A stretch of 64,000 nt of DNA from a virus. A model generated the notes under the pieces. It searched no databases. It was given only the letters and a program-made list of their open reading frames with translations, and had not been told where the DNA came from. The number at the start of each line of letters is the position of its first letter. Position 1 is the stretch's first letter. Shown piece after piece: positions 6,148 to 61,376 of the stretch. The stretch lies in UHGV virus genome UHGV-0149901; one strand, 5' to 3'. The position numbers were made by a program, and so were the translations under genes.

Positions 6148-6222
6148 GATGGTGTAGCTCAGCGGTAGAGCAGTTGGCTGTTAACCAACTGGTCGGTGGT
6201 TCGAATCCACCCACCATCGCCA
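6148..6222 (+). tRNA. tRNA-Asn (GTT)
   Basis: Cloverleaf by hand: acceptor GATGGTG/CACCATC, anticodon loop CTGTTAA, T-loop TTCGAAT, CCA end. Confidence 0.8.
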
Positions 6223-6227
6223 ATTTA

Positions 6228-6314
6228 GGGGAGTTAGTCCGTAGGGGCAGCGGGGTAGACTGTAAATCTACTGTCATTGCGACTCGGGTGGTTCGACTCC
6301 ATCACTCCCCACCA
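6228..6314 (+). tRNA. tRNA-Tyr (GTA), long variable arm
   Basis: Acceptor GGGGAGT/ACTCCCC, anticodon loop CTGTAAA, T-loop TTCGACT, CCA end. Confidence 0.75.
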
Positions 6315-6318
6315 AATT

Positions 6319-6394
6319 GCCGGTTTAGCTCAGCTGGTAGAGCGCCTGCCTTGTAAGCAGGATGTCAGCGGTTCGAGTCCGCTAACCGGCACCA
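6319..6394 (+). tRNA. tRNA-Thr (TGT)
   Basis: Acceptor GCCGGTT/AACCGGC, anticodon loop CTTGTAA, T-loop TTCGAGT, CCA end. Confidence 0.8.
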
Positions 6395-6618
6395 ATACAA
6401 CGATAAGATCATTACGGTTAATCGTCGTTCATGTGCACAATGACTGGTCGAAAGGTAGTGATCTTACCGTTGTGGTGGATTCGCAGACTGATGCGATAGC
6501 TTTCTTGGATGTTAGGGAAATGCGGCCGCAAATCTTCCCTTTCGCGAGCGGTGATCGTCCGTAGTCCTAATTGGCTGCACCGTATGCCGGAGATTCAGTA
6601 CCGGCCACCACAACGGCC

Positions 6619-6705
6619 GGAGAGTAGGGAGCATGGTGCTCAAGCGGTCTTGAAAACCGTCCCATTGCGCAAGCGATGATGGTTCGATTCCATTACTCTC
6701 CGCCA
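6619..6705 (+). tRNA. tRNA-Ser (TGA), long variable arm
   Basis: Acceptor GGAGAGT/ACTCTCC, anticodon loop CTTGAAA, T-loop TTCGATT, CCA end. Confidence 0.7.
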
Positions 6706-9410: not shown

Positions 9411-9508
9411 GCTGAAAATGAGTTACTTTTACTCTTGATCCTATAAGAATCTATGCCTAATATACTGTTTACTTATACAGTGCATCGGCGTAACTCGGTG
9501 ATTGTCAT

Positions 9509-10612
9509 ATGAAAAATAGCTTTGACAGAGCACGCGCTGCGGAGAACACCTCAAAAGAGGCGATAGAGTATCTCGAAAGAGCATCTCAAATGCAGGCCGT
9601 TATGATCTCCCAGGTCAGCAATGACATGAGATTCTCGGACGCATTCATGTTATTCACTCGCTTATCTCTGCTGATAACCAGACGTCGGCCAGAGATCGCT
9701 GTTCATTGTATTTTGATACATGTTTTGCCGCACATTGCCGATGTAAAAGTAAGTGACATTAATAGGTTCATGGTGAACCAACTGGTCAACCCACTAATAC
9801 TGGATGGCAAAATTGTTATGGGCCGCCGCGTTTTCTCTCTGATGAAGCAGTTCCTTAGCTGGTGCGCCTTCCAGGGGATGATAGACGTGTCACCGTTAAA
9901 CGATATGTCACTTAACAAAGTTGCCGGTGGCGCAAAGCCCACACCTCGCGAGCGGAAGCTGACCGACGCAGAGGTATGGGTGTTCTGGAATATATGGGAC
10001 TACTTCAATGTGTGTGCTGGTACAAAATGGGCGGCCAGGCTATGTCTTGTATCCGCAAGACGACCTGACGAAGTACTGCGGGCTAAAAAAAGTGAGTTCA
10101 ATCTTAAGCGTGGGGTTTGGAATCAAGGCAAGAGGAACAAATCTGCCCGTGAGCATTCTCTGCCTTTAAGCTCATTAATGCGCACTTGTATTGAAGAGTT
10201 GTTCGAATATGGTAAAGACAGCCAGTGGCTCGTGCCTTCGAATAAAAAAATCGGGAAAGACCTTCCTATGTCTAAAGTGGCAATAGCCCAGGCATTACGT
10301 CGTATTCTGGAACGACCAGAACTGATGGAGCTTGAGCCATTTACACCCCGAGATTTGCGCCGTACTGCGCGTAGTTACTTCCCAGCATTAGGCATAAGCC
10401 AGGAGGTATCACGTAAAATCATGAACCACAGTCTTGAGGGGATAGATCGGGTCTACGACCGGCACGATTATATGGACGAGATGCGAGACGCCTTAGAAAG
10501 TTTCTCGACGTACATCGCATCAATCGTAGAGCAACCGGATTTAGACGAAATTGACCACAAATTTAAGGGAGATCGTCTATCAACAGAGCTTATTCGTGTA
10601 AATTTTTCATAG
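9509..10612 (+). CDS. Tyrosine site-specific recombinase / integrase
   Basis: C-terminal catalytic region with RDLRRT box, NHS, and terminal RVYDRHDY tyrosine; 367 aa. Confidence 0.8.
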   Translation: MKNSFDRARAAENTSKEAIEYLERASQMQAVMISQVSNDMRFSDAFMLFTRLSLLITRRRPEIAVHCILIHVLPHIADVKVSDINRFMVNQLVNPLILDGKIVMGRRVFSLMKQFLSWCAFQGMIDVSPLNDMSLNKVAGGAKPTPRERKLTDAEVWVFWNIWDYFNVCAGTKWAARLCLVSARRPDEVLRAKKSEFNLKRGVWNQGKRNKSAREHSLPLSSLMRTCIEELFEYGKDSQWLVPSNKKIGKDLPMSKVAIAQALRRILERPELMELEPFTPRDLRRTARSYFPALGISQEVSRKIMNHSLEGIDRVYDRHDYMDEMRDALESFSTYIASIVEQPDLDEIDHKFKGDRLSTELIRVNFS

Positions 10613-56856: not shown

Positions 56857-57263
56857 GCAATAGTACGATAAAGAGGCCCCATGCTCTTGATGGGGCCTGT
56901 AGCAACTAGCGTTATGGACGCTGGTTTACGTACTCAATGATCGCTTTGATAATCGCGAACATCGGCGGCACGATTTTGAACAGTAAGTTAACCATAACAG
57001 GCCTCACTTAGTTTTATCGCGCCTAGCTGCAAATACCTTTGGGCTTGCCTTTGCAGTTGCAATATCTGTAGTCGCCAGATACTTACGGCACGATTTCGAG
57101 TTAAGGTAAGGTTTTAGAGTCACCAAAAACCTGGACTTAAATCTTCTTTGAGAACAACGATGTTTGGTAAATGGTCATTATTACCTAGCATGACGGCTCA
57201 ACGTTTCTTGATGAATCCAGTACATTCGGTTAATCTTAGCTCAGTCGCCAGATACTTATGGCT

Positions 57264-57325
57264 CAGGAACAGAGGCGCAAACTCTGTTTCCTTTTAAAAA
57301 GCCCAGCCTAGTCAACTGGGCTTTT
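57264..57325. terminator. Tandem hairpin terminators, likely bidirectional
   Basis: GGAACAGAG-GCGCAAA-CTCTGTTTCC TTTT, then AAAAAGCCCAG-CCTAGTCAA-CTGGGCTTTTT. Confidence 0.65.
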
Positions 57326-57621
57326 TAATGTCCGTTTTTAACCAAATGTACCCACAATACCGCAACATCAGTGTCTTGCGAATTAAGATAGGATTTATAG
57401 AGACTATGTGCAAGTGCATAACTTTGTGGATAACTCGTAAAGGAAAAAGTGGTTTCCGCGGACATTAGTTCAGACAAGGAGTCTGGGAAAGTCAATGGGA
57501 AGTAAAAATTTGTTAAAAATAACGTTTGTTGGAATTGTATATATTTATGCCTTTCAATAGTTAGCATCTTATTAACATCTTTTTTAAGAGATAGAGTTCA
57601 AAAATATATAGCTTCAACATA

Positions 57622-57641
57622 TACTGTATGCATATACAGTA
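57622..57641 (+). promoter_or_regulatory. LexA (SOS) box
   Basis: TACTGTATGCATATACAGTA, exact CTGT-N8-ACAG palindrome, 17 bp upstream of UmuD'-like start. Confidence 0.8.
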
Positions 57642-57657
57642 TTAAGAGGCGAGTATT

Positions 57658-58047
57658 ATGGGCTTCCCTTCTCCTGCGGCGGATTATGCTGAGAGCCGTA
57701 TTTCTCTTGATCAGCAGATAATTAGACATCCTTCAGCGACCTACTTCATGAGGGCAGCTGATAGTCATCATCGTGAGGGAATATTACAGGGTGCATTGCT
57801 GGTGGTCGATTCCTCACTTACCCCGGTTGATGGTTCTCTGCTTGTATGCGCTCTGGATGGGGAATATCGCGTAAAAAGATACCGGAAGTATCCACGTCAG
57901 CATCTGGAGGATTTAAGAACCGGTAAGAAGGAAGCATTGCCAAAGGATGACGATGGATGCACGGGCAGCAATGCCGTGTTTGGTGTGATCACTCACATTA
58001 TCAACGACGCAAGAAGTGGCGAGTTTGATGATTGTCCCGTGATGTAG
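57658..58047 (+). CDS. UmuD'-like protein (naturally truncated UmuD homolog, as phage P1 HumD)
   Basis: Begins MGFPSPAADY at the position matching the UmuD self-cleavage site; S24 peptidase-like fold; no umuC follows. Confidence 0.75.
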   Translation: MGFPSPAADYAESRISLDQQIIRHPSATYFMRAADSHHREGILQGALLVVDSSLTPVDGSLLVCALDGEYRVKRYRKYPRQHLEDLRTGKKEALPKDDDGCTGSNAVFGVITHIINDARSGEFDDCPVM

Positions 58048-58059
58048 GAGAACTGATTA

Positions 58060-58084
58060 GGCGGTGCAATGCACCGCCTTTTTA
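58060..58084 (+). terminator. Rho-independent terminator
   Basis: Hairpin GGCGGTGCAATGCACCGCC plus T5; abuts mrp stop. Confidence 0.7.
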
Positions 58085-59185
58085 TCACACTGCGCGGAAT
58101 GCGATTTCGCCAGGTATTACTTCACCTTGCCAATACATTTGGGCAGCAACGCGATCTGCGAGGTCACGATAAATAGCCGTAAATTCGCTATCTGGACGAC
58201 TAATAACGGTTGGTGTTCCGTTATCCAGATCTTCACGAAGAGAGATATGAAGTGGCATTTGGCCTAACAACTGCGTGTTGTATTTCTCGGCCAGTTTCTG
58301 TGCGCCACCGGTGCCAAAAATTGGCTCGTGATGACCGCAGTTACTGCAAATATGCACACTCATGTTTTCAACGATACCCAGTACCGGCACTTCGACTTTT
58401 TCGAACATCACAATGCCTTTCTTCGCATCGATCAGCGCGATGTCTTGCGGCGTAGTTACCACAACCGCACCAGTTACAGGAATGTTCTGCGCCAGCGTCA
58501 ACTGAATATCACCAGTGCCCGGCGGCATATCGAGAACGAGATAGTCCAGATCAGGCCACAGTGTTTCCTGCAACATCTGCATCAGCGCCTTGCTGGCCAT
58601 CGGTCCACGCCACACCATTGCATTGTCGTCGGTGACCAGATAACCAATAGAGTTGGTTGCCAGGCCATGAGACATGATAGGTGCCATGTGAGTACCGTCA
58701 GGTGAGGTTGGACGTTGGTTTTCCGAGCCCAGCATGGTTGGAATTGATGGACCATAGATATCGGCATCCAAAATACCAACTTTCGCACCTTCAGCAGCCA
58801 ACGCCAGTGCCAGGTTTACCGCCGTGGAGGATTTACCCACGCCGCCCTTGCCTGAGCTGACGGCGATAATGTTCTTCACGCCATTAATGCCTGGTTGGTT
58901 TTTGACGCGCTTAAGCGTGGCAATGTTGTACGACAGCTTCCAGTCAATAGCCTTTGCGCCAGTGATACGGAGCAGATCACCACTACATTGCTCTTTCAGG
59001 TCTTCAAAAGGCTTATTCCACACGAAAGGCATGATTAGTTCGACATGCAGTGTGTCATCCATCAACGCAACATGGTGTAACGCTTTAAGCGTAGTCAGGT
59101 TGTGTTTCAGGGTTGGGTGCTGAAAATTAGCCAGCGTACCGGCTACCATTGCTCTCAGGGCATCCGGCGATTTGGACTCGCTCAT
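58085..59185 (-). CDS. apbC: Fe-S cluster carrier ATPase ApbC/Mrp
   Basis: 366 aa; ParA/MinD-type P-loop GKGGVGKS and CxxC (CSNCGH); strongly resembles enterobacterial Mrp; divergent from metG as in the chromosome. Confidence 0.9.
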   Translation of the reverse strand: MSESKSPDALRAMVAGTLANFQHPTLKHNLTTLKALHHVALMDDTLHVELIMPFVWNKPFEDLKEQCSGDLLRITGAKAIDWKLSYNIATLKRVKNQPGINGVKNIIAVSSGKGGVGKSSTAVNLALALAAEGAKVGILDADIYGPSIPTMLGSENQRPTSPDGTHMAPIMSHGLATNSIGYLVTDDNAMVWRGPMASKALMQMLQETLWPDLDYLVLDMPPGTGDIQLTLAQNIPVTGAVVVTTPQDIALIDAKKGIVMFEKVEVPVLGIVENMSVHICSNCGHHEPIFGTGGAQKLAEKYNTQLLGQMPLHISLREDLDNGTPTVISRPDSEFTAIYRDLADRVAAQMYWQGEVIPGEIAFRAV

Positions 59186-59342
59186 CCCGTCTCCTTTATT
59201 TTAATTTGCGCAATTGTCGCCTTGTAGTGTACTCCAGCTACGACATTTAATCATTTATGAGAAATGCTGTTATCACATGGCAGACATAAGGCCATTTTGT
59301 TACTATCAAGCCCCTTTTCACTACAAAGAAGTAATGCCTACT

Positions 59343-61376
59343 ATGACCCAAGTCGCGAAGAAAATTCTGGTGACGTGCGCGCTGCCGTACGCTAACGGCT
59401 CAATCCACCTCGGCCATATGCTGGAGCACATCCAGGCTGATGTCTGGGTTCGTTACCAGCGAATGCGCGGCCACGAGGTTAATTTCATCTGTGCCGACGA
59501 TGCCCACGGTACGCCGATCATGCTGAAAGCACAGCAGCTTGGTATCACACCGGAACAGATGATTGGCGAAATGAGTCAGGAACACCAGACTGATTTTGCA
59601 GGCTTTAACATCAGCTATGACAACTATCACTCGACGCACAGCGAAGAGAACCGTCAGTTGTCCGAGCTTATCTATACTCGCCTGAAAGAGAACGGTTTTA
59701 TTAAAAACCGCACCATCTCTCAGCTGTACGATCCGGAAAAAGGCATGTTCCTGCCGGACCGTTTTGTGAAAGGCACCTGCCCGAAATGTAAAGCACCGGA
59801 TCAATACGGCGATAACTGTGAAGTCTGCGGCGCTACTTACAGCCCGACTGAACTGATCGAGCCGAAATCGGTAGTTTCTGGTGCTACGCCGGTAATGCGT
59901 GATTCCGAACACTTCTTCTTTGATCTGCCTTCTTTCAGCGAAATGTTGCAGGCATGGACCCGCAGCGGTGCGTTGCAGGAGCAGGTGGCAAACAAAATGC
60001 AGGAGTGGTTTGAATCTGGCCTGCAACAGTGGGATATCTCCCGCGATGCGCCGTACTTCGGTTTTGAAATTCCGAACGCACCGGGCAAATATTTCTACGT
60101 CTGGCTGGACGCGCCGATTGGCTACATGGGTTCCTTCAAGAATCTGTGCGACAAACGCGGCGACACTACCAGCTTCGACGAATACTGGAAGAAAGACTCC
60201 ACCGCCGAGCTGTACCACTTCATCGGTAAAGATATTGTTTACTTCCACAGCCTGTTCTGGCCTGCCATGCTGGAAGGCAGCAACTTCCGCAAGCCGACCA
60301 ACCTGTTTGTTCATGGCTATGTGACGGTGAACGGCGCAAAGATGTCCAAGTCTCGCGGCACCTTTATTAAAGCCAGCACCTGGCTGAATCATTTTGACGC
60401 TGACAGCCTGCGTTACTACTACACTGCGAAACTCTCTTCGCGCATTGATGATATCGATCTCAACCTGGAGGATTTCGTTCAGCGCGTGAATGCCGATATC
60501 GTGAACAAAGTGGTTAACCTGGCCTCCCGTAATGCAGGCTTTATCAACAAGCGTTTTGACGGCGTGCTGGCAAGCGAACTGGCTGACCCGCAACTGTACA
60601 AAACCTTTACTGATGCTGCTGAAGTGATTGGTGAAGCATGGGAAAGCCGCGAATTTGGTAAAGCGATTCGTGAAATCATGGCGCTGGCTGATCTGGCTAA
60701 CCGCTATGTCGATGAACAGGCTCCGTGGGTGGTGGCGAAGCAGGAAGGGCGCGATGCCGATCTGCAGGCGATTTGCTCTATGGGCATTAACCTGTTCCGC
60801 GTGCTGATGACGTACCTGAAACCGGTACTGCCGAAACTGACTGAACGTGCAGAAGCATTCCTGAATACAGAACTGACCTGGGATGGTATCCAGCAACCGC
60901 TGCTGGGCCATAAAGTGAATCCGTTCAAGGCACTGTATAACCGCATCGACATGAAGCAGGTTGAAGCACTGGTGGAAGCATCCAAAGAGGAAGTAAAAGC
61001 CGCTGCCGCGCCAGTAACTGGCCCACTGGCAGATGATCCGATTCAGGAAACCATCACCTTTGACGACTTCGCCAAAGTTGACCTGCGCGTGGCTCTGATT
61101 GAAAACGCGGAGTTTGTCGAAGGTTCTGACAAACTGCTTCGCCTGACGCTGGATCTCGGTGGCGAAAAACGTAATGTCTTCTCCGGCATTCGTTCCGCTT
61201 ATCCAGATCCACAGGCACTGATTGGTCGTCACACCATTATGGTGGCCAACCTGGCTCCGCGTAAAATGCGCTTCGGTATCTCCGAAGGCATGGTGATGGC
61301 TGCTGGCCCCGGCGGGAAAGATATCTTCCTGTTAAGCCCGGATGCTGGTGCTAAACCAGGCCACCAGGTTAAGTAA
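59343..61376 (+). CDS. metG: Methionyl-tRNA synthetase
   Basis: 677 aa from [28 protein letters not shown] (HIGH motif), KMSKS motif, zinc knuckles; track ORF start 59214 is an upstream in-frame extension. Confidence 0.95.

Follow-up and report, generated by a model that had tools for sequence, protein, structure and literature searches.

Structure of the humD locus

The window analyzed here is a stretch of viral DNA of 64,000 nucleotides. The locus under study contains a short gene, humD, its expression signals and two hairpins that flank it:

57305..57322, plus strand: terminator-like hairpin with a T-run, a 7-bp stem followed by TTTTTAATGTC
57597..57602, plus strand: predicted -35 hexamer TTCAAA of the humD promoter (TTCAAA-17-TATACT, 9 of 12 matches to the consensus)
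57620..57625, plus strand: predicted -10 hexamer TATACT, covering the first four bases of the LexA box
57622..57641, unstranded: LexA (SOS) box TACTGTATGCATATACAGTA, matching the consensus at 18 of 20 positions and matched in none of 100 shuffles
57644..57649, plus strand: Shine-Dalgarno sequence AAGAGG, 8 nt 5' of the humD ATG, read from the sequence
57658..58047, plus strand: humD coding sequence, 129 amino acids plus stop, ATG start, encoding a UmuD'-type protein without the N-terminal arm
58059..58079, plus strand: intrinsic-terminator-like hairpin with a 9-bp stem (7 GC pairs), followed by TTTTT

An earlier sequence-only reading had delimited a feature at 57622-58047, whose limits are exactly the first base of the LexA box and the final base of the stop codon, and had placed the box 17 bp upstream of the gene. 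The box is indeed there; the gap between its end and the ATG is 16 nt, and 17 is obtained by counting to the A of the ATG.

The downstream hairpin begins 12 nt past the humD stop codon and lies between humD and the convergent gene apbC, which is followed by metG; on the other side humD is preceded by an 800-bp stretch without annotated genes. The hairpin at 57305..57322 would shield humD from transcription arriving from the left and would mark the left edge of an autonomous unit. Promoter-like sites near humD are no commoner than in shuffled sequences, and the sigma-70-like call is a weak consensus match only. Having its own promoter-like site and two flanking terminator-like hairpins, humD looks like an autonomous transcription unit, and the locus is likely to be a self-contained cassette that consists of a terminator, a promoter with a LexA operator, a ribosome-binding site, the coding sequence and a second terminator.

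Several further elements were noted upstream of the gene. A promoter-like site TTTACG-17-GATAAT (56925-56953) and the hairpin at 57305-57322 bracket about 350 nt without an annotated gene; this stretch (56925-57322) has no Rfam match and may represent a small transcript or a mere spacer. In the whole window, the only Rfam hits at the gathering threshold were tRNAs at 6.1-6.4 kb; none was near humD. An 80-aa ORF at 57325..57567 on the minus strand was held to be spurious; it is unannotated in the near-identical RefSeq plasmids. A perfect DnaA box (57426-57434; TGTGGATAA, reverse complement TTATCCACA) is located about 200 nt upstream of humD, in a segment of about 60 nt (within 57409-57480) that is common to the window and the upfN/upfO region of phage P1, the surrounding DNA being otherwise unrelated. 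The P1 annotation of this segment notes its similarity to a part of the E. coli sequence in which two DnaA boxes are predicted.

Identity and conservation of the HumD protein

The humD translation begins MGFPSPAADYAESRISLDQQ, that is, M-GFPSPAADY. The protein matched the NCBIfam equivalog model NF051876 ("HumD family translesion DNA polymerase") with 219.8 bits (E = 8e-66; trusted cutoff 120 bits), residues 1-129 aligning with positions 1-129 of the 129 in the model. The UmuD subfamily model NF007621 (PRK10276) scored 87 bits, below its cutoff of 110, and the LexA model only 27 bits; the Pfam family Peptidase_S24 (PF00717) was matched with 37.9 bits against a cutoff of 23.3. PHROG 811 ("UmuD-like") was matched too. 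The best sequence match in the PDB was the UmuD' crystal structure 1UMU (E = 6.7e-23, residues 2-118), the UmuD' chains 1UMU and 1I4V both giving E about 1e-22 over residues 2-118. Given these matches to solved UmuD' structures, comparison with an AlphaFold2 fold was unnecessary; the single-sequence AlphaFold2 model (mean pLDDT 41, pTM 0.31) was unusable.

Alignment with UmuD and P1 HumD, which the sequence-only reading had suggested, gave 44% identity to E. coli UmuD and 91% to P1 HumD. It paired Gly2 of HumD with Gly25 of UmuD, the first residue past the Cys24/Gly25 cleavage bond. An in-frame TAA at 57643-57645, 15 nt 5' of the ATG (read from the sequence), closes the reading frame, and therefore no longer, armed form of HumD can be encoded. 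HumD begins with Met-Gly and has no cleavable (Cys/Ala)-Gly bond with a preceding arm or domain. The proposal that the gene encodes a UmuD' homolog beginning at the cleavage-site residue is thus borne out by the full-length match to NF051876, the match to 1UMU and the alignment. P1 HumD, which had been named as a precedent, turned out to be more than that, as shown by the 91% identity and the full-length match to the HumD equivalog model. We consider it almost certain that the gene is a humD ortholog, encoding a member of the UmuD family (S24) that has the UmuD' form from the outset.

This feature is not new: HumD has been known since 1999, has a curated NCBI equivalog model, and is a name that RefSeq already gives to this gene in near-identical plasmids. 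E. coli plasmids of about 110 kb share the humD region at 100% identity, and the gene is labeled there either "S24 family peptidase" or "HumD family translesion DNA polymerase". The finding therefore carries little weight as a discovery; it is useful as an annotation point.

HumD is strongly conserved. In the set of 83 close loci (the window, the near-identical plasmid, P1 and 80 viral contigs), the 129-aa ORF with the same start residue was present in 83 of 83; the exact start M-GFPSPAADY was found in 80, and the remaining three had one substitution at residue 2 or 3. The dN/dS ratio relative to P1 humD is 0.05, indicating strong purifying selection, and dS is 0.77, so the transfer of humD was not recent.

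The catalytic Ser60 and Lys97 of UmuD have their counterparts in S36 and K73, and the dyad is thus present in the window copy. Among eight diverse HumD-type proteins, the serine position is occupied by S, S, T, T, T, T, Q and Y, and the lysine position by K, K, K, K, K, M, R and R. The dyad, being variable within the family, is not what selection maintains, and the Ser-Lys catalytic activity is probably irrelevant for HumD. Pre-cleaved UmuD' reportedly does not need the dyad (Nohmi et al. 1988). The sequence-only reading had named the absence of catalytic residues as a refutation of its proposal; this argument is not applicable, because a pre-cleaved UmuD' would need no dyad and because the dyad varies among HumD proteins.

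The LexA box

The 20-mer TACTGTATGCATATACAGTA has two central mismatches to the palindromic LexA consensus TACTGTATATATATACAGTA. No other match turned up in 64 kb when up to three mismatches were allowed, and none of 100 dinucleotide-preserving shuffles yielded any match. The bare core CTGT-N8-ACAG was found twice in the window, with 0.83 occurrences expected, which is not significant by itself. The predicted -10 hexamer, part of a promoter that is a consensus match only, overlaps the box (57620-57625).

In all 83 close relatives, CTGT-N8-ACAG precedes the ATG by 16-19 nt, with about 15 different central octamers. An information-content profile centred on the box is circular for the half-sites, the segments having been picked by the motif; the unselected count is the 83 of 83. 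In distant stand-alone homologs (N15 gp26, phiKO2 gp23, HK639 and Hafnia phage yong1), a box is located 14-44 nt upstream. The phiKO2 box, found by a pattern search, is the identical 20-mer and coincides with a LexA binding site in the phiKO2 annotation; that of Aeromonas phage pAEv1818 is a one-base variant, and in HK140 the box precedes a small leader ORF and is 262 nt upstream of the gene. The P1 box is annotated as "LexA binding site in the regulatory region of lxr and humD". The annotated PhumD promoter of P1 lies far upstream of the P1 box, and therefore the promoter-operator geometry may differ between P1 and the window.

The LexA box that the sequence-only reading had reported was hence found again, above what shuffled sequences give and over the predicted promoter. 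Judging from the sequence and its conservation, humD is very likely to be under LexA control.

A second LexA-like box, TACTGTTTACTTATACAGTG, was seen at 9463-9482. It has a perfect CTGT-N8-ACAG core, agrees with the consensus at 16 of 20 positions and lies 26 nt 5' of a plus-strand ORF (9509..10612) encoding a tyrosine-recombinase-like protein of 367 aa. The phage-plasmid may put a recombinase or resolvase under SOS control.

The C-terminal tail and the absence of umuC

That umuC is missing, as had also been claimed, was seen at several levels. TBLASTN with E. coli UmuC (E<=1, the K-12 locus serving as positive control) found no umuC in the window; none was found in 80 related loci (E<=1) or, at E<=10, in the rest of the near-identical plasmid of about 110 kb, the remainder of which consists of structural genes. 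The annotation of the 98.5%-identical plasmid includes no Y-family polymerase. Unlike the window, Klebsiella phage ST846-OXA48phi9.2 and Cronobacter phage ENT39118 carry a full-length umuD together with umuC.

Compared with UmuD, HumD has a 4-residue internal insertion and, in the alignment, a 10-residue extension past the UmuD C-terminus. The extension is part of one more feature of the locus:

58003..58044, plus strand: codons of the HumD-specific C-terminal tail N116-M129, NDARSGEFDDCPVM, without counterpart in UmuD

The window protein conforms to the tail pattern ND(A/M)RSGE(F/W)DDxP... Residues N116, D117, E122, D124, D125 and P127 are invariant in eight diverse HumD-type proteins, and the tail as a whole hardly varies among HumD-type proteins with identities as low as 44%. 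We also considered 91 homologs of mixed origin, drawn from phages and from 80 bacterial species. Ten homologs in this set bear the tail E(F/W)DDxP..; all ten lack the N-terminal arm and none has an adjacent umuC (two of the ten were first scored as having a long N-terminus by an ATG heuristic, their annotated starts being at the glycine). None of the 78 arm-bearing homologs has the tail, and 63 of them have umuC immediately downstream. Conservation of a tail that is absent from UmuD' suggests a role of HumD beyond that of UmuD'.

The C-terminal tip of SSB is DFDDDIPF; the HumD tail loosely resembles it, with a different proline register. The acidic tail (E-F-D-D-x-P-V-M) might conceivably act as a peptide that docks on a host hub protein, either as a mimic of the SSB tip or as an extra handle on UmuC or RecA; we regard this as quite improbable. 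If true, such docking would let HumD outcompete host UmuD' or would bring translesion synthesis to the phage-plasmid DNA.

In lambdoid phages attP overlaps the 3' end of humD (HK140); many records of Stx-converting and mEp234-like phages contain only residues ~45-128, at a genome end; and in a Citrobacter prophage copy the tail is replaced (…INDARKRGV). Integration appears to cut or remodel humD ends.

Comparison with known systems

The closest known relatives are P1 HumD (AAQ14181) and its counterparts in P7, D6, RCS47 and SJ46, which are 91-93% identical to the window protein over all 129 aa. P1 HumD shares with the window the M-GFPSPAADY start, the C-terminal tail, a LexA box 16-19 nt upstream and the absence of umuC. 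Both carriers are E. coli phage-plasmids, one a P1-like myovirus and the other an unrelated SSU5-like siphovirus. The central octamer of the box is of the GCATAT type in the window and of the AAATGA type in P1. The flanks differ as well: P1 humD has a divergent lxr upstream and phd-doc downstream, whereas in the window it stands between an ORF-free spacer and the convergent apbC-metG side, and no homolog of P1 lxr was found in the window (best TBLASTN E = 1.9). DNA similarity to P1 extends from about 10 nt left of the LexA box to the stop codon, the flanks being unrelated; judged by these boundaries, the cassette shows moron-like behaviour.

More distant stand-alone homologs have 44-72% identity overall. 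Among them, the "UmuD-like" proteins N15 gp26, phiKO2 gp23 and those of HK639 and HK140 also start at the cleavage-site glycine, with a LexA box upstream, and end in ...NDxRSGEFDDCPV(M/L); they are only 64-72% identical to the window HumD, and their catalytic serine is replaced by threonine. In lambdoid phages humD adjoins the integrase/attP region, unlike in the window.

In phiKO2 and HK140 humD has a dinI homolog as its partner; no dinI was found in the window or the plasmid. The dinI homolog of phiKO2 is divergent and shares the LexA box, that of HK140 is upstream on the opposite strand, and some prophages have the same pairing. DinI inhibits RecA-mediated cleavage of UmuD. A humD-dinI pair could silence the activation of host UmuD while supplying pre-cleaved HumD.

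E. coli UmuD' (1UMU/1I4V) and MucA'/RumA' resemble HumD in the S24 beta-fold (by sequence), the N-terminal residue and, probably, LexA regulation. They differ in origin: UmuD' is what remains when a 139-aa precursor, whose gene shares an operon with umuC, cleaves itself under RecA stimulation, while HumD is translated directly in the short form.

Proposed function and alternative explanations

The following course of events is proposed. In an undamaged cell, host LexA would occupy the box and block RNA polymerase. Upon DNA damage, RecA-stimulated self-cleavage of LexA would derepress humD. HumD dimers would then form without the RecA-mediated cleavage that delays the activation of host UmuD and, with host UmuC (and RecA), would give a Pol V-like translesion polymerase; this polymerase would copy damaged host and phage-plasmid DNA, the cost being mutations.

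We infer LexA binding and modulation of translesion synthesis because of the work on P1 HumD and because of conservation. P1 HumD is reported to restore mutagenesis and to bind UmuC and RecA filaments (McLenigan et al. 1999). By its 91% identity to the P1 protein, the window HumD would replace UmuD' functionally, and by the same analogy it probably acts via host UmuC. LexA-controlled HumD as a ready UmuD' partner of host UmuC is, with good probability, the best explanation overall. Good complementation by P1 HumD reportedly required a high-copy plasmid, its native expression being poor. The P1 humD gene is dispensable for lytic growth (PMC10695390).

If the proposed function is correct, SSU5-like E. 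coli phage-plasmids (with dfrA51, nrdAB, thyA, apbC and metG) would deliver an SOS-inducible, pre-activated accessory subunit of the error-prone DNA polymerase V (Pol V). In carrier strains the supply of HumD could raise damage-induced mutagenesis and hence the evolution of resistance under quinolones.

The likeliest alternative is that HumD does not chiefly work as a productive subunit of Pol V but modulates the replisome or a checkpoint, or competes with host UmuD/UmuD'. It might form heterodimers with UmuD or bind Pol III alpha, beta, epsilon or SSB partners, and polymerases would be redirected to phage-plasmid replication during SOS. The invariant C-terminal tail, absent from UmuD', hints at an extra partner; humD never travels with umuC; and the weak complementation by P1 HumD at native expression levels points the same way. 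SOS polymerase traffic that frees Pol III for the phage is discussed in the P1 literature (PMC4713147). However, the UmuD' core is well conserved (44% identity to UmuD over the full length of the UmuD' body), and P1 HumD "facilitates SOS mutagenesis" according to the title of McLenigan 1999, which argues for productive action with UmuC. On balance we consider the modulator or competitor role unlikely.

A second alternative is that HumD is an SOS-induced regulator of the lysis-lysogeny or copy-number switch of the phage-plasmid, an S24-domain protein acting on a repressor and unrelated to translesion synthesis. LexA-controlled antirepressors of temperate phages include P1 coi, N15 antC and 186 tum, and the LexA control and S24 domain of HumD are reminiscent of them; the LexA-like box before the recombinase-like gene also suggests that the element listens to SOS. 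Yet HumD lacks a DNA-binding domain, the solved structure nearest to it in sequence is that of UmuD' and not of a repressor, the LexA model scores 27 bits against 220 for HumD, and the catalytic dyad is not conserved across the family; in P1 the link between SOS and lysis is assigned to coi, not humD. A role in such a switch is very unlikely.

Finally, that humD is a decaying, functionless umuDC remnant which lost its 5' end and umuC, as its truncated N-terminus and lack of a partner gene might suggest, is extremely improbable and appears effectively refuted by the conservation data: the dN/dS of 0.05 relative to P1, the same start residue and 129-aa length in 83 of 83 relatives, the gene's own Shine-Dalgarno sequence, LexA box and terminator, the same architecture in unrelated phages at 44-72% identity, and truncation exactly at the cleavage-site glycine.

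Carrier element and distribution

The window is collinear with the plasmid NZ_CP195946.1 (110 kb) at 98.5% identity. Escherichia phage Cyrano encodes the same HumD protein, and the CMS-2020a and PhiR41_1 proteins show 98.5-99.2% identity to it. An 8-kb nrdAB-thyA-dfrA51 stretch shows synteny, at 75% identity, with Salmonella phage SSU5. By these similarities the window belongs to an SSU5-like E. coli phage-plasmid of the Cyrano/CMS-2020a type. SSU5 and the Klebsiella SSU5-like phages are absent from the best 60 of 92 phage records encoding a HumD relative, so that humD appears to be accessory cargo in the E. coli branch. A literature search on both SSU5 and UmuD found no published work joining the two.

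At a threshold of at least 80% coverage, the humD cassette was found in 672 of 5,426 complete E. coli genomes (about 12%, one in eight); 691 of its 804 places are on plasmids.

Two full-length, host-like genes adjoin humD, apbC (mrp; 58085..59185, minus strand) and metG (~59340..61376, plus strand). The short stretch of the apbC 3' end that was compared has only 80-90% identity to the chromosomes of nearly all 5,426 E. coli genomes; apbC and metG are diverged captured housekeeping genes. Elsewhere in the window, four tRNA genes (Asn-GTT, Tyr-GTA, Thr-TGT and Ser-TGA) were seen at 6148-6705, and the trimethoprim-resistance gene dfrA51, annotated on the near-identical plasmid, is located at ~41.4-41.9 kb within the nrdAB-thyA nucleotide-metabolism block.
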